The notes: generated by a model not told the origin, from the letters alone. A DNA stretch of 64,000 nt from Escherichia coli (GCF_024223415.1 NZ_CP100500.1), one strand, 5' to 3'. Counted from the first letter of the stretch, positions 1 through 33,342 are shown. Program-made: numbers and translations.

Positions 1-1235
<1,235 letters not shown>

Positions 1236-1260
1236 GTCTGACTTTATCTGATTTAAAAAT

Positions 1261-1286
1261 GCCAGCCTTCGGGCTGGCGTTTTTTA
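1261..1286. terminator. Rho-independent terminator hairpin between convergent eno and TPM gene (gccagcc-ttcg-ggctggc followed by T-run; A-run on the other side)
   Basis: Perfect 7-bp stem GCCAGCC/GGCTGGC with 4-nt loop, then GTTTTTT; flanked by AAAAAT upstream so it can act on both strands. Confidence 0.8.
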
Positions 1287-1294
1287 TGGTTGAG

Positions 1295-2200
1295 TTACCA
1301 GCGACCGGACGCGCCGCCACCTCCAGAAGAACCGCCACCGCCGCTAAACCCGCCGCCTGAGCCTCCGCCACTTGAGCCGCCACCGGAAGAGGATGAAGAA
1401 GAACCTTTTCTTGAAGCTCTTTCTTTACTGAGTTTTTTGTATTTGGCGCGTAGCTTTTTATTGACGATAAGCCAAAAAATAACCAGTGGTACGATCGCAA
1501 AAGGCGTTAACATACCGCAGGCAACGATTAAATTGGTCCATGGTCCTGGCTCGGCAACATAGAGGAATACCATCCCGTAAATGGCGCCAGTGAGAGTGAT
1601 CCAGGGTAAATTCGACGGATCGGTAAAAACAATAAAATATGAAAGTACCGCCAGCAATATAATTACAGCAAGCGATAATGGAATAGGGGGATTGATACTG
1701 TAATAATCCCCCCTGTCTTCCGGTAATTCACCATTCAACAGAAGCGCGCCGATATTTTCGCTTGCCAGTGTTAATCCACCCATCAGGTCATCACTTTTGA
1801 AGGCAGGGATCAATATATCCCTGATAATCTTCGCCGCTTGCAGGTCGGTAACCACCCCTTCCAGCCCGTAGCCAACCTCAATACGAACAGCATGATCCTC
1901 CCAGGCAACCAGAAGTAAAATACCATCGTTTCTCTGCTTATCTCCCAGTTTCCAGCTATCAAAAACCCTTGTAGCATATTGTTCAATGGAATCGTCTCCG
2001 GTAGACGGCACTACTAATACAGCGACCTGCGCCCGTGTTTTATGTGTAATATCCTGCAGTTGCTGTGTCAGTGATTGTTGTTCAGAAGTGCTTAACGTAC
2101 CAGTAATATCGGTCACCTGTTGGCGCAGTTCCGGCACAGCAATTTGCTGGGCAAGCCCAGGAAGACACCACAAAGTGAATAGAATAAAGATTAAGCGCAT
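1295..2200 (-). CDS. ygcG: TPM-domain (TLP18.3/Psb32/MOLO-1 family) membrane protein, paralog 1; signal peptide, TPM domain, hydrophobic segments, Gly/Ser-rich C-terminal tail ending SGRW
   Basis: ORF 1295-2212; likely ATG at 2200 (MRLIFILF... signal-like N-terminus); TPM-like core (VAVLVVPSTGDDSIEQYATRVFDSWKLG...GILLLVAWEDHAVRIEVGYGLEG); symbol assigned by position next to eno and is uncertain because three paralogs are present. Confidence 0.8.
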   Translation of the reverse strand: MRLIFILFTLWCLPGLAQQIAVPELRQQVTDITGTLSTSEQQSLTQQLQDITHKTRAQVAVLVVPSTGDDSIEQYATRVFDSWKLGDKQRNDGILLLVAWEDHAVRIEVGYGLEGVVTDLQAAKIIRDILIPAFKSDDLMGGLTLASENIGALLLNGELPEDRGDYYSINPPIPLSLAVIILLAVLSYFIVFTDPSNLPWITLTGAIYGMVFLYVAEPGPWTNLIVACGMLTPFAIVPLVIFWLIVNKKLRAKYKKLSKERASRKGSSSSSSGGGSSGGGSGGGFSGGGGSSGGGGASGRW

Positions 2201-2205
2201 TACGA

Positions 2206-3354
2206 TCACCAACGGCCGGATGAACCGCCGCCTCCTGAAGAACCGCCACCACCGCGGAAAGAATTTCTCGACGAAGAGCGAGAGTGAGCATTACGATTCC
2301 CCGTTTTCCTGTTGCTTTTTTCTCCTGATCCCAGCTTAAGATTGCCAGTAAATTTGGCCACAATGATCAGCAGAACGATGCCAGCAATGGTTATTGGACC
2401 GATAAAATGATCAATTAACCCAATAATTGTTGAGATGAATGCAATATCTTTATTACTGGCGAACACTAGGCACCATCCCACAATAATTATCAGCATCACG
2501 ACAAACAATGAATTTCGTCCTGATTCACGAACCTGCGGAGTCTTCTTTTGTTTTTTCACTTTAGCGTTTTTATTTTTTGGGGTCAGCATCATAGGAAATA
2601 CGCGGCACATATTAAAAACTACCGCGAGACGCTGCTTGCAGGTTGTTGCTAACAATAAACTAAAACAAACGACCGATACCCGCCGAATGATGACATCGTC
2701 CTGAAAGGAGAAAAACCAGACCATAGGGGTAATCATCGATATCATCCATATGCCACGCCGTGGGCGGCTGGCAAATCGCCAGAGGACAACGATGGCAACG
2801 ATCATCAGCAGTGTCCAGGCAAGACATGGCAGCGAACGTTGCGGATTAGCAAACAGATGATTGGCTAAAGCATCCAAAGGGCTAATGTTCGCTTTGATAT
2901 GGGTAAACTGTGCGATGCTTTCAATTCCGCCCGTTAATCCAGCAAAGAGATTGTTTTTTTCGAATTCTGGCTGCATATGGTAACGAACAATTTGCGCAGC
3001 TTGTTCCGGCGGCAACATCTGTTCCAGTCCATGTCCAATCTTCATTGACGCCAGCCCTTCCGGCCATACGACGAGAATTAAGATACCTTCGCCATATCGC
3101 TTCTCTCCAACGGGTTTCCAGTGATATACCCCGTATCTCTGCGAGGCTGCAAGTTTAATGTTTTTGCCCCCTGTGGTCGGCGTAACCAACACGGCCACCT
3201 GGAAGTGGTTTTGCTGCTCGAGAGTCTGTAATTGTTGAGTTAAAGCAGTTTGTTCTTCTGTCGTTAATGTCCCGGTTAAGTCAGTTACTGAAGGCCATTG
3301 TTCAGCGAATACCTGAAAACCGCATAGCATCAGAAGTAAGAGAAAAATACGCAT
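2206..3354 (-). CDS. TPM-domain membrane protein, paralog 2 (382 aa), with extra Lys-rich linker and additional hydrophobic segments; C-terminal GGGGSSGGGGSSGRW
   Basis: ORF with ATG at 3354; N-terminal signal-like MRIFLLLLMLCGFQVFA; TPM-like core (VAVLVTPTTGG...GILILVVWPEGLASMKIGHGLE); stop 5 nt upstream of paralog 1 start. Confidence 0.8.
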   Translation of the reverse strand: MRIFLLLLMLCGFQVFAEQWPSVTDLTGTLTTEEQTALTQQLQTLEQQNHFQVAVLVTPTTGGKNIKLAASQRYGVYHWKPVGEKRYGEGILILVVWPEGLASMKIGHGLEQMLPPEQAAQIVRYHMQPEFEKNNLFAGLTGGIESIAQFTHIKANISPLDALANHLFANPQRSLPCLAWTLLMIVAIVVLWRFASRPRRGIWMISMITPMVWFFSFQDDVIIRRVSVVCFSLLLATTCKQRLAVVFNMCRVFPMMLTPKNKNAKVKKQKKTPQVRESGRNSLFVVMLIIIVGWCLVFASNKDIAFISTIIGLIDHFIGPITIAGIVLLIIVAKFTGNLKLGSGEKSNRKTGNRNAHSRSSSRNSFRGGGGSSGGGGSSGRW

Positions 3355-3368
3355 ATCAATTCCTTTTG

Positions 3369-4262
3369 TTACCAGCGCCCGGAAGCGCCACCGCCACCAG
3401 ATGAACCGCCACCACCGCTGAAATTGTCATTGTTGAATGAAGAGGATGACGATGATGAATAGTGGGAGGAAGAATTGCTTCTTGTATGGCGTGATGGCTG
3501 GTTGACATCACGCATCAAATCCCGAACTTTTTTGCCGAAGGGGGTAAAAGCGATGGCGACAGCCAGGAACGGTGTGGCGAAGCAGAGTAATGTTGCGAGT
3601 ACTCCCCAGCTTCCGCTGAAGCCTGCTATAGGTAAAACAAAGGCCAGTACAATAGCTGCGAAGCAAATTACTCCCAGCGTTTTGATATATCCTCTGGCAG
3701 AAATAAACGTCAGTACTATCGCCCAGACTAACAATGCCCACCAACCGCTAAAGGGCAAAGGGTGATCGGTCGGTGTTATCGTTGCTAAATTATTCCCCGT
3801 AAGACGACTTTCAATATCGCTGATCCCCTTTTGTAAACCGCCAGCTAGGTCGCCTTTTTTAAATGCAGGAATAATACTGTTGCGAATAATTTTCCTGGAC
3901 TGTGCATCCGTAATAATACCTTCCAGCCCGTAACCGATTTCAATACGCACGGTATGATCCTGCCAGGCGACTAACAGTAGAACGCCATCATCACGGTCTT
4001 TATCACCCGGTTTCCAGCTATCGAATACCCGCGTTGCGTACTGCTCGATGGTTTCATCGCCTGTTGTTTCAACCACTAACACGACCAGTTGTGCGTGGCT
4101 TTTTTGCGTCAGGGCTTTAATCTGGTTGGTCAGGGTGTTTACTTCGCTGTTTGTTAATGTGCCCGTTAAGTCATTCACATACTTGGGTGATTCAGGTACT
4201 GGAATTTGTGTGGCAAACACAGATGAACAGAAGAAAGCCATAAGGAAGATAAAATTTCGCAT
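3369..4262 (-). CDS. TPM-domain membrane protein, paralog 3; C-terminal GGGGSSGGGGASGRW
   Basis: ORF 3369-4292; preferred ATG at 4262 (MRNFIFLMAFFCSSVFA signal-like, GGGGAAG RBS upstream); TPM core nearly identical to paralog 1 (YATRVFDSWKPGDKDRDDGVLLLVAWQDHTVRIEIGYGLEG). Confidence 0.8.
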   Translation of the reverse strand: MRNFIFLMAFFCSSVFATQIPVPESPKYVNDLTGTLTNSEVNTLTNQIKALTQKSHAQLVVLVVETTGDETIEQYATRVFDSWKPGDKDRDDGVLLLVAWQDHTVRIEIGYGLEGIITDAQSRKIIRNSIIPAFKKGDLAGGLQKGISDIESRLTGNNLATITPTDHPLPFSGWWALLVWAIVLTFISARGYIKTLGVICFAAIVLAFVLPIAGFSGSWGVLATLLCFATPFLAVAIAFTPFGKKVRDLMRDVNQPSRHTRSNSSSHYSSSSSSSFNNDNFSGGGGSSGGGGASGRW

Positions 4263-4275
4263 AGAACTTCCCCGC

Positions 4276-4878
4276 TTAATGAGCATTAGCATTCTGGCTA
4301 AAATCTATTGTTGGGGCTTTACTTACTGCGGCGACATCATCCGGCAAATAATTTTTCTTTGGTGTGTAATCCATGACCTTTGCGGTTAACACAGCGGGGA
4401 ATTTGCGGATAGTGACATTATATTGTTCAATGGCTTTAATATATCTTCCTCGCGCAACGGCAATCCGATTTTCACTTCCTTCAAGCTGTACCATTAAATT
4501 TTGATAGAGTTCCTGAGATTTTAACTCAGGGTAACGCTCACTAATTATCGTTAACTGACCGAGAGTGCGAGTCACCTGCGCTTGAGCCTGTTGCCAGGCT
4601 TGTAATTTTTGTTCATCTCCCGGAGTTTGCTGAAGATCGCTACTGGCGCGATTAGCCTGGCTACGAGCCAATGTTACGGCTTCCAGTACATCTCGTTCAT
4701 GGCTGGAATAACCTTTAATGCTGGCGACAAGATTAGGAATAAGATCGGCGCGACGTTGATATTGATTCAATACCTCAGACCAGGAGGCGTTAACCTGCTC
4801 ATCATAGGTTTGAATATCGTTATATCCACAGCCTGATAAATTGAAAATAAATATAATTACGATGAATATTCTGAGCAT
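4276..4878 (-). CDS. lemA: LemA-family lipoprotein (lipobox LSGC near N-terminus)
   Basis: 200-aa ORF with LemA-like motifs (NASWSEVLNQYQRRADLIPNLV, ERYPELK); first gene of the lemA-TPM-TPM-TPM co-directional cluster. Confidence 0.8.
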   Translation of the reverse strand: MLRIFIVIIFIFNLSGCGYNDIQTYDEQVNASWSEVLNQYQRRADLIPNLVASIKGYSSHERDVLEAVTLARSQANRASSDLQQTPGDEQKLQAWQQAQAQVTRTLGQLTIISERYPELKSQELYQNLMVQLEGSENRIAVARGRYIKAIEQYNVTIRKFPAVLTAKVMDYTPKKNYLPDDVAAVSKAPTIDFSQNANAH

Positions 4879-5050
4879 GTTTAAATCCCTTTTAATTAAT
4901 TCCTTAAAACATAATACTCTGCTTCATTTTATTCTTTATGATCTAATCCACTTTTTGCCATAAACCTGCCTGTAACAGAATGTTAATAAGACATGATTGT
5001 TGTGGCAGGATCTGCAATAATTAACAATTATCCACTTCACAGAGAATGCT

Positions 5051-5722
5051 ATGCAGTACCCGATTAACGAGATGTTCCAGACCCTGCAAGGTGAGGGTTA
5101 CTTTACCGGCGTCCCCGCCATTTTTATTCGTTTACAGGGATGCCCGGTTGGCTGTGCCTGGTGCGACACCAAACACACCTGGGAAAAGCTTGAGGATCGG
5201 GAAGTCTCCCTTTTCAGCATTCTGGCGAAGACCAAAGAGAGTGATAAGTGGGGGGCGGCGAGCAGTGAAGATTTGCTGGCTGTCATTGGTCGCCAGGGAT
5301 ACACCGCGCGGCATGTGGTGATTACGGGTGGTGAGCCTTGCATTCATGATTTGCTACCACTGACAGATCTGCTCGAAAAGAACGGTTTTAGCTGCCAGAT
5401 CGAAACCAGTGGTACTCATGAGGTACGCTGCACACCGAATACCTGGGTTACCGTATCACCAAAGCTGAACATGCGCGGCGGCTATGAAGTGTTGTCACAG
5501 GCACTGGAGCGAGCCAACGAAATCAAGCATCCAGTGGGACGCGTACGTGATATTGAAGCACTGGATGAACTTTTGGCGACGCTGACCGATGATAAACCGC
5601 GAGTCATTGCACTGCAGCCGATTAGCCAAAAGGATGATGCCACACGTTTGTGCATTGAAACCTGCATTGCGCGTAATTGGCGTTTGTCGATGCAAACCCA
5701 TAAATATTTAAATATTGCCTGA
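5051..5722 (+). CDS. queE: 7-carboxy-7-deazaguanine synthase (radical SAM, queuosine biosynthesis)
   Basis: 223-aa ORF; CxxxCxxC-type cluster motif (GCPVGCAWCDT) and overall match to QueE/YgcF. Confidence 0.93.
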   Translation: MQYPINEMFQTLQGEGYFTGVPAIFIRLQGCPVGCAWCDTKHTWEKLEDREVSLFSILAKTKESDKWGAASSEDLLAVIGRQGYTARHVVITGGEPCIHDLLPLTDLLEKNGFSCQIETSGTHEVRCTPNTWVTVSPKLNMRGGYEVLSQALERANEIKHPVGRVRDIEALDELLATLTDDKPRVIALQPISQKDDATRLCIETCIARNWRLSMQTHKYLNIA

Positions 5723-6059: not shown

Positions 6060-6759
6060 AGAGTTCCCCGCGCTAGCGGGGATAAACCGGCTGGATACCG
6101 ATCAATTCAATATCGTTTTACGAGTTCCCCGCGCTAGCGGGGATAAACCGGAATACCGATTCATAACGGCGGAAATGTGGATGAGTTCCCCGCGCTAGCG
6201 GGGATAAACCGGTTAATGATGTCAGTGGCGGTTTTCGTATCGCGAGTTCCCCGCGCTAGCGGGGATAAACCGAGTGAGGCAATCAAATGACCCGCCCGCA
6301 ATTAGAGTTCCCCGCGCCAGCGGGGATAAACCGTAAATCCCTCGCGCATCGAGTCAAATGTCGGAGAGTTCCCCGCGCCAGCGGGGATAAACCGGTCGCT
6401 GGAACGGGGCGAATAAAGAGGGGCTCGAGTTCCCCGCGCCAGCGGGGATAAACCGACAGCTCTTTCCCGTCGTTATCCAGTTGGTAAGAGTTCCCCGCGC
6501 CAGCGGGGATAAACCATATGATTCACGAATTACAGGAAACCAGCCGCCGAGTTCCCCGCGTCAGCGGGGGTAAACCGCTATCGGGGTGATTCTGCCAATG
6601 CTCAGAGTGGTGTTCCCCGCGCCAGCGGGGATAAACCGAGCGTTTGCTCCGGGTGGAATAACCCTGGCGGGTGTTCCCCGCTCCAGCGGGGATAAACCGT
6701 TTGCTGGAACCCAAAACTCAGCGCACAGGTTGTGTTCCCCGCGCCAGCGGGGATAAACC
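6060..6759 (+). CRISPR. Type I-E CRISPR array, 12 repeats of 29 bp with 11 spacers of 32 bp (61-bp period)
   Basis: Repeats GAGTTCCCCGCGC[T/C]AGCGGGGATAAACCG at 6060, 6121, 6182, 6243, 6304, 6365, 6426, 6487, 6548, 6609, 6670, 6731; distal repeats degenerate (GTG..., last base A). Confidence 0.98.
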
Positions 6760-7214
6760 ACCATATAACCCGTTATCTCTTTCTCAAGTTTTTATATTAG
6801 CTGTACTTGTAATAAGCAACATATCCACGTAACACCTCATGTTCAAAATAGTTCCCCATGCCAGATAAGTTCACAATTATCGATACAAAAAATTAAATTT
6901 AATCAAAGTGTTATTTGTATAATTCTTAAGCCGTTAAGAAATTTTAATCTATTATTTTTTTAATATTAATTAATGCCTGTTAATTTTTTCTTTAGTATAA
7001 CAGTGTATTTTTTAAGCTTGTTATTCATTGATTAAGTAATAAATCTGGAAATTTGTCTTTGTTTTGAGGCTAATGAGTGGTTTTACATAACCGCCTCTAT
7101 ACGCTGTTGATGAATAGTTCTTATGAATAAAGATATCCAGTTCATACTTTAAGTGAAAATTGATAAAGTGCGATTCGTATTGTCTTTTATTCTAAAGACA
7201 TCGAGTGTAGTTAA

Positions 7215-7352
7215 TATTCCTTGTAAAAACAGGGATAAACCGAACTAGTTAAAGTTTTTATTATGTTCCCTGCATCAGCGGGGATAAACCGGACTTGTTA
7301 TCATTTTTTAAGTTGTCGAACTTATGTTCCCCGCGCCAGCGGGGATAACCAT
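7215..7352 (+). CRISPR. Degenerate CRISPR remnant (2-3 decayed repeats, one 32-bp spacer) preceded by AT-rich leader-like region
   Basis: Repeat-like atgttccctgcatcagcggggataaaccg at 7263-7291 and atgttccccgcgccagcggggataacc at 7324-7350; partial cagggataaaccg at 7231-7243. Confidence 0.75.
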
Positions 7353-7397: not shown

Positions 7398-8876
7398 TTA
7401 CGCATTCGACCAGCTCTGGATCGAATCCGCATTCCCCAATTCCCCATGCATCACTTCATACGATTTTTTCAGGATCACATCAGTATGTTTGGTTAGGTCT
7501 TTGAAAATGCCTTTATTCATCGCGTCGTAGCGTTTGGCATTGCTCTCAATCGGTATAAAGATATCTTTCACGCGAACCATTTTATCGACAGCCGTTGCGT
7601 AATCCGGGTATAGCCCCAGACCTACCGCTGTATTAATCGCTGCCCCCAGGCTTGCACAACCGTTAATGGCGTTACGGCGTGCCGGAAGGTTGAACACGTC
7701 GGCAAAAATCTGCATAAACAGATCGCTGTTCGAACCGCCGCCAGTAATGATCACATGCTTTGCAAAGTGATTCATTTCATTACACATATTGTCGTAATTG
7801 TTCTTCAGCGTCAGCGCCACGCTTTCCAGTATAGAACGATATATCCATGCGTAATCCATGCTGGAATCAAAGCCGATCATAATCCCACGTTTGTAGGGTT
7901 CCCACGGGTTGGTCAGCCAGTCCAGCACCGTCATCAGACCATTACAGCCAGGCGGCACACAAGAAGCTTTTTTGTTGAGCAAATCTTCCGGTGAAAGATC
8001 CTGTGCTTTGGCATCCTGAATTAACGACTCGCCTAGCATGTCGCGCAGCCAGCTCACCGTCCACATGCCTTTACGGATACCGTAACCTTCATACAGCAAT
8101 GTTTGCGGAATAGAAGACATAATCGGCCAGTACGCCACCGGATCTTTCGGCAGTGCTTTGCCGTTCATCATCAATGCGATGTAAGTGCCAAGAGAAATTA
8201 CCGCCGTTTCATCATCCAGTAATCCGGCCCCCAGAGCTTCTACCGGTTTATCACTGGTGGTACAAACAACCGGCAGTCCTGCCGGGAAATGTGTCGCCAG
8301 TGCGGCTTGTGGTGTGATATGTCCGAGGACGGTGCCAGGCATTTGCACATCAAACAGCATATGACGGGGGATATTAAACTTATCCATTACCGCAGCATCT
8401 TCACTCCATGCCCAGCTCTTATAATCCACCGGCCACTGACCAAAATAGTTGGAGATATTGTCTTTAAACTCGCCGGTTAAGCGATGCGTCAGATAACCCG
8501 AAAAAGAGGTGACATAGGCCACGTCAGGATTAGTGTGTTCGTAGGGACGCGTTACGCGTGCATCCTGCCAGCTAATCAATGGCGCAGCTGGCGTGCCATC
8601 GGCTTTCAATAACGCACGGCAGCAACGGATGGATCCCAGACCAATACCGACAATATCTTCTTTATTCCCGGCAAACTGACTCATCAAATCGTGACCGGCA
8701 AAACATAATGATGCCCATAAATCGTCGTCAGGATGTTCTGCGGTATCGGCATCTGGCGTGTGCATCGGCTGCAATAAGCCTTTACCTTCGCAAACCACAT
8801 TACCTTCCAGATCGTACATCACCACTTTTGTGCTCTGACTTCCGCCATCAATCCCTATGATGTATTTTTTCGACAT
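7398..8876 (-). CDS. ygcE: FGGY-family carbohydrate kinase
   Basis: 492-aa ORF; FGGY kinase N-terminus (YIIGIDGGSQSTKVVMYD) and position next to CRISPR array as in K-12. Confidence 0.9.
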   Translation of the reverse strand: MSKKYIIGIDGGSQSTKVVMYDLEGNVVCEGKGLLQPMHTPDADTAEHPDDDLWASLCFAGHDLMSQFAGNKEDIVGIGLGSIRCCRALLKADGTPAAPLISWQDARVTRPYEHTNPDVAYVTSFSGYLTHRLTGEFKDNISNYFGQWPVDYKSWAWSEDAAVMDKFNIPRHMLFDVQMPGTVLGHITPQAALATHFPAGLPVVCTTSDKPVEALGAGLLDDETAVISLGTYIALMMNGKALPKDPVAYWPIMSSIPQTLLYEGYGIRKGMWTVSWLRDMLGESLIQDAKAQDLSPEDLLNKKASCVPPGCNGLMTVLDWLTNPWEPYKRGIMIGFDSSMDYAWIYRSILESVALTLKNNYDNMCNEMNHFAKHVIITGGGSNSDLFMQIFADVFNLPARRNAINGCASLGAAINTAVGLGLYPDYATAVDKMVRVKDIFIPIESNAKRYDAMNKGIFKDLTKHTDVILKKSYEVMHGELGNADSIQSWSNA

Positions 8877-32459: not shown

Positions 32460-33342
32460 GTGTTCCCCGCGCCAGCGGGGATAAACCGGTCAAATCGGTT
32501 ACCTTAACCTGTTGAATGTGGTGTTCCCCGCGCCAGCGGGGATAAACCGAACGGCTACGGCACCGAGGTGACAAACCAGATGTGTTCCCCGCGCCAGCGG
32601 GGATAAACCGAACTCCAGGATATTGCAAACCGCATAGTGGATGTGTTCCCCGCGCCAGCGGGGATAAACCGCCGTTGCGCTGGCATCGGGTGTACCTGTT
32701 GTGGTGTTCCCCGCGCCAGCGGGGATAAACCGCCGTTGCGCTGGCATCGGGTGTACCTGTTGTGGTGTTCCCCGCGCCAGCGGGGATAAACCGGGCTTAC
32801 ACGCCACCATGGCATCAAGAACGATGTGTTCCCCGCGCCAGCGGGGATAAACCGATTACGACTTCCGCACGCACCCACCGTTTGTAGTGTTCCCCGCGCC
32901 AGCGGGGATAAACCGTTGGGCTAGGAGGAAGAGCATCATTAACATGGGTGTTCCCCGCGCCAGCGGGGATAAACCTGAGGCGGCTAAACCGTCGCGCACA
33001 CGAGCGACGTGTTCCCCGCGCCAGCGGGGATAAACCGCGTACTGCTTACTCCGTCATCGATGTATGAGTGTGTTCCCCGCGCCAGCGGGGATAAACCGTA
33101 CGTGTCGCCGTTACAGATTTCAGTCTGTTAGTGTTCCCCGCGCCAGCGGGGATAAACCGGGCGTCCAGTGATGCTTTCTGGTGCTCGAATAGTGTTCCCC
33201 GCGCCAGCGGGGATAAACCGCACGATTTTATGTGCCGCGTTGAGGCGTGGGCGTGTTCCCCGCGCCAGCGGGGATAAACCGGGCGCACTGGATGCGATGA
33301 TGGATATCACTTAGAATTCCCCGCCCCTGCGGTAGAACACCC
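32460..33342 (+). CRISPR. Type I-E CRISPR array, 14 repeats of 29 bp plus degenerate terminal repeat; 14 spacers of 32 bp
   Basis: GTGTTCCCCGCGCCAGCGGGGATAAACCG every 61 bp from 32460 to 33253; degenerate repeat gaattccccgcccctgcggtagaacac at 33314-33342. Confidence 0.98.

Follow-up and report, generated by a model that had tools for sequence, protein, structure and literature searches.

Gene content and organization of the locus

The window analyzed here is a 64,000 nt stretch of Escherichia coli chromosomal DNA (GCF_024223415.1, NZ_CP100500.1). Between eno and queE it carries a four-gene operon, lemA-tpm1-tpm2-tpm3, which is oriented opposite to both of these genes (Table 1). Bases 1200–5000 of the window are 100% identical to DNA of E. 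coli SCU-316 (NZ_CP054371). The gene of interest, tpm2, encodes a TPM/YgcG-family protein and has a RefSeq entry at exactly the same coordinates (WP_001217976.1, "TPM domain-containing protein", 382 aa). The original prediction, made from the sequence of the window, held that this protein is about 80 aa longer than its neighbors, and the lengths of the tpm1 (297 aa) and tpm3 (301–304 aa) products bear this out.

Table 1. Genes and other features at the tpm2 locus, with the predicted parts of the tpm2 protein. Positions are counted from the first base of the window.
Feature	Position (nt)	Strand	Size or residues	Remarks
eno	36-1235	+		
Terminator-like hairpin	1261-1278	-		3' of tpm3, likely operon end
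tpm3	1295-2209 (1295-2200 from ATG)	-	301-304 aa	Canonical three-helix paralog, variably present; Pfam 131.1 bits
tpm2	2206-3354	-	382 aa	TPM/YgcG-family protein with predicted five-helix membrane module; ORF, RefSeq CDS, Pfam PF04536
tpm2, cytoplasmic basic Ser/Arg-rich segment and GGGGSSGGGGSSGRW tail (predicted)	2209-2334	-	341-382	AlphaFold2: disordered
tpm2, extra helix pair (predicted)	2335-2508	-	Helix 4 ~280-300, helix 5 ~304/318-335	AlphaFold2, hydropathy
tpm2, Lys-rich disordered cytoplasmic loop (predicted)	2509-2580	-	259-282	PKNKNAKVKKQKKTPQVRESGRNS
tpm2, pre-membrane short helix, helices 1-3 and amphipathic extension (predicted)	2581-2889	-	Short helix 159-169, extension to 256	AlphaFold2, hydropathy
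tpm2, helices 1-3 (predicted)			~171-195, 203-216, 221-243	
tpm2, periplasmic TPM domain (predicted)	2890-3303	-	18-155	Fold kept, sequence divergent
tpm2, signal peptide (predicted)	3304-3354	-	1-17	MRIFLLLLMLCGFQVFA then EQ; hydrophobic N-terminus ending V-F-A; AlphaFold2 helix 2-15; putative cleavage
tpm1	3369-4262	-	297 aa	Canonical three-helix TPM/YgcG paralog; Pfam 139.6 bits
lemA	4276-4878	-		First gene of the operon; Pfam PF04011, 163 bits
queE	5051-5722	+		
CRISPR array	6063-6758	-		Pattern search
ygcE	7398-8876	-		

The gap between lemA and tpm1 is 13 nt, with both genes on one strand, which is the arrangement of a LemA-TPM cassette. A Shine-Dalgarno-like AAGGA is found 7 nt 5' of the tpm2 ATG, and the TGA of tpm2 overlaps the GTG start of tpm3. 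An alternative ATG for tpm3 occurs at 2200, 5 nt beyond the GTG, and would give a product that begins MRLIF..., like the paralogs. A 55-nt direct repeat is common to the 3' ends of tpm1, tpm2 and tpm3. Since LemA has a lipoprotein box (L-S-G-C) at its N-terminus, it is probably periplasmic, as the TPM domains are predicted to be. It also shows weak similarity to the magnetosome protein MamQ, with a score under the curated cut-off; MamQ has a role in the magnetosome membrane. Although a CRISPR array adjoins the locus, none of the four operon proteins matched a defense model in PADLOC, and Tandem Repeats Finder returned no repeats from the CRISPR region.

Domain organization of the tpm2 protein

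A single TPM domain was detected by Pfam (PF04536, residues 23–149, covering profile positions 1–124 of 125), with a score of 76.4 bits against a gathering cut-off of 22.1 bits. It follows the putative signal peptide, as is the order in the YgcG family. Kyte-Doolittle hydropathy located hydrophobic stretches at residues 177–196, 204–220 and 224–240, and a weaker one at 245–258, all before the basic segment, and two more (283–300 and 304–335) after it; the peaks of the last two, helices 4 and 5, reach 2.66 and 2.38. By the same measure, tpm1 and tpm3 have three hydrophobic stretches each, which is also the commonest number in the YgcG-family sample, and tpm2 departs from it, with five helices by hydropathy and AlphaFold2. 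The basic segment at residues 260–281 (KNKNAKVKKQKKTPQVRESGRN) lies inside the loop 259–282, a stretch of 24 residues with nine Lys or Arg and one acidic residue. Its net charge of +8 and the hydropathy profile agree with the succession of hydrophobic, basic and again hydrophobic segments in the original prediction. All three paralogs also have the predicted Gly-rich tail in common (GGGGSSGGGG(A/S)SGRW). The tpm2 protein ends in GGGGSSGRW, and the corresponding family motif, GGG.SG.W, is terminal in 91 of 95 YgcG-family members examined.

The basic loop has a net charge of +6 to +14 in every tpm2 homologue, while the median charge after the third helix in the YgcG family is +1. However, a basic stretch is not specific to tpm2, because tpm3 carries a strongly basic one after its own helix 3 (KKLRAKYKKLSKERASRK, net charge +8). 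What is truly extra in tpm2 is the helix pair 4–5, followed by a second basic segment.

Membrane topology

The structure of tpm2 was predicted with AlphaFold2 from a 64-sequence alignment. The model is of medium confidence (pTM 0.41), with pLDDT values of 80–90 in the TPM domain and 55–74 in the membrane region, where helices were placed at residues 159–169, 171–195, 203–216, 221–256, 280–300 and 304–335. Residues 257–279 (pLDDT 36–43) and 336–382 were disordered. A model of tpm1 made likewise has membrane helices at 173–189, 193–212 and 218–238. The helix count for tpm2 is thus a reading of hydropathy together with the AlphaFold2 model. A crude hydropathy scan gave six segments in some tpm2 orthologues, and residues 245–258 of tpm2 itself are moderately hydrophobic. 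A six-span reading would place the +8 loop, the +6 post-membrane segment and the tail outside, whereas the five-span model has about 24 Lys and Arg on the cytoplasmic side against about three on the periplasmic side. In the homologues from Klebsiella, hydropathy indicates five hydrophobic segments and a 60-aa loop whose net charge is +13 to +14, and the equivalent of tpm2 residues 245–258 is not hydrophobic.

The architecture favored by these predictions, and to which we attach considerable confidence, has the N-terminus outside, five spans, and the Lys-rich loop and tail in the cytoplasm. A Sec signal peptide would export the N-terminal TPM domain, which is placed in the periplasm because of that signal peptide. 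The chain would then pass through the inner membrane five times, compared with three in tpm1 and tpm3, with a flexible Lys-rich loop in the cytoplasm between helices 3 and 4, and after helix 5 the second basic segment and the Gly-rich ...SGRW tail would lie in the cytoplasm as well. The Lys-rich stretch is best read as this cytoplasmic loop, and the added basic loop proposed earlier is supported by the model, in which it is disordered and set between the helices 221–256 and 280–300. The suggestion that the membrane topology itself differs does not hold up in the model: five and three are both odd numbers of spans, and the TPM domain and tail are therefore expected to be located as they are in the neighbors, periplasmic and cytoplasmic, respectively.

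A separate membrane module of narrow distribution

Extra length in the membrane region had been ascribed to an insertion. The extra length is real, but it does not appear to be an insertion into a module shared with the neighbors. When the tpm2 module was compared with the three-helix module of tpm1 and tpm3 by hhalign, the probability was 2%, i.e., no detectable homology, and BLASTP between the membrane regions gave weak alignments alone. A three-way alignment that suggests gaps in a shared module was rejected as compositional for the same reasons. Internal duplication within tpm2 was also considered and discarded, as BLASTP of residues 156–258 against 259–345 returned nothing significant.

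Searching 1.84 billion representative proteins with a profile built from just the module returned 11 matches, all but one of them Escherichia or Klebsiella types or fragments. One weak match to a tandem-repeat sequence (E = 5.9e-06) was judged spurious. When 100,044 species genomes were scanned, three loci were found, namely those of E. whittamii, E. albertii and K. spallanzanii. The order queE, lemA, tpm1, tpm2-type gene, eno was kept at all loci found, with the tpm2-type gene second after lemA. There is no family model for the module in Pfam or NCBIfam, and NCBIfam had nothing specific for tpm2 as a whole. Judged by these sequence searches, the membrane module of tpm2 is separate and lineage-restricted.

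The homologues in K. spallanzanii (P0029 and P0121) are 265–285 aa in length and have no Pfam domain. Their first 12 residues are unchanged (MRIFLLLLMLCG), and are followed by a remnant of the TPM N-terminus (SDLTSTLAAAEQ) and then by the module (ALADHL...LPC...EDVII), a longer Lys-rich loop, two helices and the tail. The motifs ALA(N/D)HL, LPC and (D/E)DVII are thus found in both tpm2 and the Klebsiella protein. The Klebsiella sequence looks as if about 110 residues had been deleted from within the TPM core. Since the module has been kept in both Escherichia and K. spallanzanii, while the TPM domain is degenerate in one and deleted in the other, it appears to be the part of tpm2 that is under selection.

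The constant partner of tpm2 is tpm1, which adjoins the tpm2-type gene in E. albertii and in Klebsiella. By comparison, tpm3 has an internal stop in one locus (L004) and is missing from Klebsiella. As E. albertii has lemA-tpm1-tpm2 only, the conserved core consists of LemA, one canonical TPM protein and the five-helix protein, without tpm3.

Divergence of the TPM domain

Across 55 other family members, 36 alignment columns of the TPM domain show a conservation of at least 85%. Each of those members keeps at least 30 of these columns, and tpm1 and tpm3 keep at least 33, compared with 21 in tpm2 and 18–21 among its orthologues. The replacements in tpm2 (tpm1 numbering) include E73K, R78Q, D102E, R106S, E108K, G115Q and, at an invariant position, D119P. 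The Pfam score is correspondingly 76 bits in tpm2 versus 131–140 in the neighbors. The fold appears to be retained: the model of tpm2 has an alpha/beta/alpha sandwich with four strands and flanking helices (pLDDT 80–90), and Foldseek matched it to 5anp (BA41; E = 1e-9, TM-score of 0.81–0.87 normalized to target length) as well as to 7tbr, 3ptj, 8c7i and 9h70. Matches to PDB sequences were also found for the TPM domain, and Foldseek gave no meaningful match for tpm2 beyond this domain.

Because the TPM core has been lost in the Klebsiella version, and only 18–21 of the 36 columns are kept in the E. coli version, the TPM domain of tpm2 looks dispensable. Sub-functionalization among the paralogs, as first suggested, gains weight from the loss of about half the conserved TPM residues in one lineage, and of the domain but not the module in the other.

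Conservation and selection

A full-length tpm2 (1149 or 1155 bp) is present in 1102 of 5426 complete E. coli genomes at 93–100% identity, and carriers include O157:H7, LF82 and ST95 strains. Across Escherichia, including E. coli, E. whittamii and E. albertii, the orthologues measure 378–384 aa and share 77–100% identity; those of E. albertii and other species outside E. coli are 378–382 aa, with 77–87% identity. The feature that sets tpm2 apart is kept in the Escherichia orthologues, a check that had been proposed with the original prediction. In codon alignments all length changes were in-frame, with three codons in the loop of E. albertii and two in the tail of one E. coli gene. The tpm2 sequence was absent from the collection used for an exact-sequence cluster look-up.

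Between species, dN/dS (Nei-Gojobori) was 0.21–0.30 for the whole gene, 0.23–0.32 for the membrane module (residues 156–340), 0.17–0.24 for the helices after the loop (4 and 5) and 0.43–0.56 for the loop itself. Thus, tpm2 is a real gene under purifying selection, and since the loop evolves faster than the rest, it may be merely a weakly constrained linker. The operon is missing from about 80% of E. coli, and the paralogs flanking tpm2 are often broken; the system is therefore dispensable.

Comparison with related proteins

The HMM match, fold, signal peptide and tail all place tpm2 in the TPM/YgcG family, from which its helix number and conserved residues set it apart. Like tpm2, its neighbors tpm1 and tpm3 have a signal peptide, a periplasmic TPM domain, a multi-helix anchor, a basic Ser-rich cytoplasmic segment and the tail, all as predicted features, but they differ in having three helices, higher-scoring TPM domains and membrane modules without detectable homology to that of tpm2. 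The YgcG of E. coli K-12/B (b2778; WP_001268460.1; 290 aa) belongs to the same family, occupies the same slot between eno and queE, and has the tail. It shares 31% identity with tpm2 over the TPM domain and about 43% identity with tpm1 and tpm3, and its partner is the small yqcG, not lemA. On account of the low identity and the pairing with yqcG in place of lemA, the YgcG locus is an alternative cassette and not an allele of tpm2.

The K. spallanzanii protein shares with tpm2 the five-segment module, the Lys-rich loop, the tail and the position after lemA and tpm1. It differs in that the TPM core is absent, leaving a DLT..L..AEQ remnant, and in its longer and more basic loop, and its identity over the module is about 29%. 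Long TPM proteins of the YgcG family are also found in Burkholderia (P0034, P0041, P0044 and others; 359–565 aa), with five to six hydrophobic segments. Their loops are short and Arg-rich, and they gave no match to the tpm2 module profile, so they represent an independent expansion.

The alpha/beta/alpha TPM fold is likewise found in BA41 and BA42 of Bizionia, Rhom172_1776, AtTLP18.3, Psb32 and LMTP1. In these solved proteins the domain lies on the non-cytoplasmic side of the membrane, as is predicted for tpm2, but they are soluble or single-pass and have no five-helix module, Lys-rich loop or Gly-rich tail. Structures of TPM domains have been reviewed (10.1101/2024.10.28.620569), and the D..L..E motif near the N-terminus of tpm2 probably corresponds to the metal site that is described there for LMTP1 and Rhom172_1776. 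The roles proposed for these proteins (photosystem II repair; weak phosphatase or ATPase activity) are not transferable to E. coli. Phosphatase or nucleotidase activity has been claimed for some TPM members, and is disputed (PMC12419801).

Possible role of tpm2 and alternative explanations

The reading we prefer, with a probability of roughly 0.55, is that tpm2 is a real, conserved and specialized subunit of an accessory four-gene envelope operon, lemA-tpm1-tpm2-tpm3, with the architecture described above and a role of the kind outlined here. In that role it would act from within the membrane as a scaffold or adaptor, with the canonical tpm1 and the lipoprotein LemA as its partners. Its basic loop would set the topology and rest on anionic head groups of inner-leaflet phospholipids, and the complex would serve the maintenance or assembly of the membrane or envelope. 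Taken by itself, this functional part is tentative and argued by analogy, because published proposals have TPM domains helping membrane complexes to assemble, or acting on them in a chaperone-like way, and not working as phosphatases (PMC11237479, PMC12419801), and because LemA weakly resembles MamQ. A literature search on LemA with TPM, and on YgcG, found no functional study of these genes.

A more specific version, which we regard as rather unlikely, would make tpm2 a pseudo-TPM scaffold whose five-helix module, Lys-rich loop and ...SGRW tail form a cytoplasmic docking platform, coupling periplasmic sensing by its canonical TPM and LemA partners to an effector in the cytoplasm or at the inner leaflet. 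On this view, the ...SGRW tail would serve as a conserved motif for recognition. AlphaFold2 modelled this tail with high confidence in tpm1 and not in tpm2, which is consistent with such a platform.

The extra length of tpm2 could have arisen by a deletion-fusion of two tandem paralogs, with the TPM domain, helices 1–3 and basic segment coming from the front gene, and two helices, a basic segment and the tail from the back of the next one, so that the apparent insert would be a relic of the fusion. The layout of tpm2 (basic segment, helices, basic segment, tail) suits such an event, as does the comparable basic stretch after helix 3 of tpm3; the direct repeat at the 3' ends of the three genes could mediate rearrangements, and BLASTP aligned tpm2 282–338 weakly with the first helices of tpm1 and tpm3 (E = 0.003–0.08, in a tiny database). 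However, hydrophobic segments can be expected to resemble one another by composition alone, the profile comparison gave a probability of 2%, and tpm2 has no internal repeat, which makes this origin improbable. As an origin story it would be compatible with the scaffold explanation.

Equally improbable is that tpm2 is a decaying, redundant paralog under relaxed constraint on its way to becoming a pseudogene, with no distinct function. Half of the residues conserved in the family TPM domain are gone, the locus is accessory with neighbor paralogs that are often truncated, and within E. coli dN/dS is 0.68–2.8 for residues 156–258, although this ratio comes from very few changes. Against decay, dN/dS between species is 0.2–0.3 and falls to 0.17–0.24 for helices 4–5, and no disrupted tpm2 ORF was seen among the alleles examined, which go down to 93% DNA identity and include some with a broken tpm1 or tpm3. 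Moreover, the module has outlived the loss of the TPM domain in Klebsiella, and in E. albertii it is tpm3 and not tpm2 that is missing.

Contact of the basic loop with nucleic acid was also part of the original prediction, and a loop that anchors DNA or RNA at the membrane would fit a charge of +8 in 24 residues (+13 to +14 in Klebsiella) and a disordered, cytoplasmic location. We found no evidence for it: Pfam and NCBIfam revealed no recognizable nucleic-acid-binding motif or domain, the charge of the loop is conserved but its sequence is not, and the operon context consists of envelope proteins only. Positive charges are, as a general rule, found next to membrane helices on their cytoplasmic side, and the similar juxtamembrane stretch of tpm3 fits this rule; a nucleic-acid-binding loop is accordingly very improbable.

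Finally, a frameshift or assembly artefact, which had been named as grounds for refuting the prediction, or an accidental fusion of two reading frames can be dismissed as highly improbable: some metagenome or read-assembly fragments are frameshifted near the A-rich loop (P0123 and P0124), where the DNA has runs of only six A, short for phase variation, but the same 1149–1155-bp ORF is found in the 1102 complete genomes, its length of 378–384 aa is kept across species, indels are all in-frame with dN/dS below 0.35 to either side of the loop (0.21–0.30 for the gene), and Klebsiella keeps the same order of elements.

Significance

To our knowledge, there is no agreed function for the TPM/YgcG and LemA proteins, which are widespread in bacteria. 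As tpm2 is already annotated, though uncharacterized, recognizing it as a five-helix module variant is a modest refinement of annotation that will not surprise specialists. What the operon offers is a natural comparison, in that two canonical three-helix proteins are encoded beside one five-helix protein with a degenerate TPM domain. With the TPM domain fully dispensable in Klebsiella, the membrane module and cytoplasmic tail become the targets for study, over the much-studied soluble TPM domain. A heteromeric complex is predicted. The operon, which is present in about 20% of E. coli, might contribute to strain-specific properties of the envelope.

Gene content between eno and queE

The content of the slot between eno and queE (1236-5050) varies among E. 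coli genomes. In most of them, K-12 and B included (locus L011), it holds yqcG and ygcG, and lemA with the three TPM genes occupies it in 1102 of 5426 genomes. Several E. coli loci carry altered versions of the TPM genes: L003 combines lemA with a truncated tpm1 and a 120-aa hypothetical protein that is unrelated, L004 has a tpm3 with an internal stop, and in L012 tpm1 is truncated and an IS4 insertion adjoins eno. The start codon of tpm3 is ambiguous among three candidates on the minus strand (2198-2212), which are listed in the table together with the repeats described below.

Repeats and candidate start codons in the window
Feature	Position	Strand	Remarks
55-nt direct repeat, copy at tpm3	1294-1348		
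55-nt direct repeat, copy at tpm2	2205-2259		
55-nt direct repeat, copy at tpm1	3368-3422		
tpm3 start candidate ATG	2200	-	would yield MRLIF..., like the paralog N-termini
tpm3 start candidate GTG	2209	-	RefSeq choice; overlaps the tpm2 stop
tpm3 start candidate TTG	2212	-	from the ORF list
CRISPR array beside queE	6063-6758	-	12 repeat copies
CRISPR repeats near ygcE	7265-7350	-	2 copies, degenerate
CRISPR array about 26 kb away	32462-33279	-	14 copies, all perfect

Divergence within tpm2 and the N-termini of tpm2 and LemA

Synonymous divergence of tpm2 (2206-3354) between E. coli and E. albertii (L007, 4001-5140) is a mosaic along the gene: the TPM domain has a dS of 1.23, against about 0.30 for the membrane module and tail. 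The pattern is reversed when the comparison is made with other Escherichia species (L009), where the TPM domain has the lower dS, 0.27, and residues 156-258 give 0.87. Such a mosaic, inverted between the two comparisons, suggests that recombination has occurred inside the gene. The first 12 residues, MRIFLLLLMLCG (3319-3354, minus strand; 6052-6090 in L005), are the same in E. coli tpm2 and its homologue in K. spallanzanii, while the remainder of the two proteins is just ~29% identical; full identity over these residues is unusual for a signal peptide. LemA begins with MLRIFIVIIFIFNLSGCGYN (4820-4878, minus strand), and since this includes the lipoprotein box L-S-G-C, the sequence suggests a periplasmic, lipid-anchored protein rather than one held by a membrane helix.

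CRISPR arrays

A pattern search showed that the type I-E E. coli repeat GTTTATCCCCGCTGGCGCGGGGAAC recurs at 61-bp spacing in the CRISPR arrays of the window. Between the array beside queE and ygcE lies a very AT-rich stretch (6751-7250, GC 0.28), presumably either intergenic sequence or the leader of the array. In K. spallanzanii, a CRISPR array sits between eno and the tpm2-type gene.

The shared Gly-rich tail

The 3' ends of tpm1, tpm2 and tpm3 carry a 55-nt direct repeat (78-85% identity) coding for the Gly-rich tail. This repeat may have served as a substrate for the truncations and deletions observed at the locus. AlphaFold2 models the last ~7 residues of tpm1 (...GASGRW; C-terminus, 3372-3400) at a pLDDT of ~88, with a beta strand at residues 292-296, whereas the tpm2 copy of the ...SGRW motif (C-terminus, 2209-2260) reaches only ~31. 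If the modelled tpm1 strand pairs with the TPM sheet, this would be at odds with the predicted sidedness.
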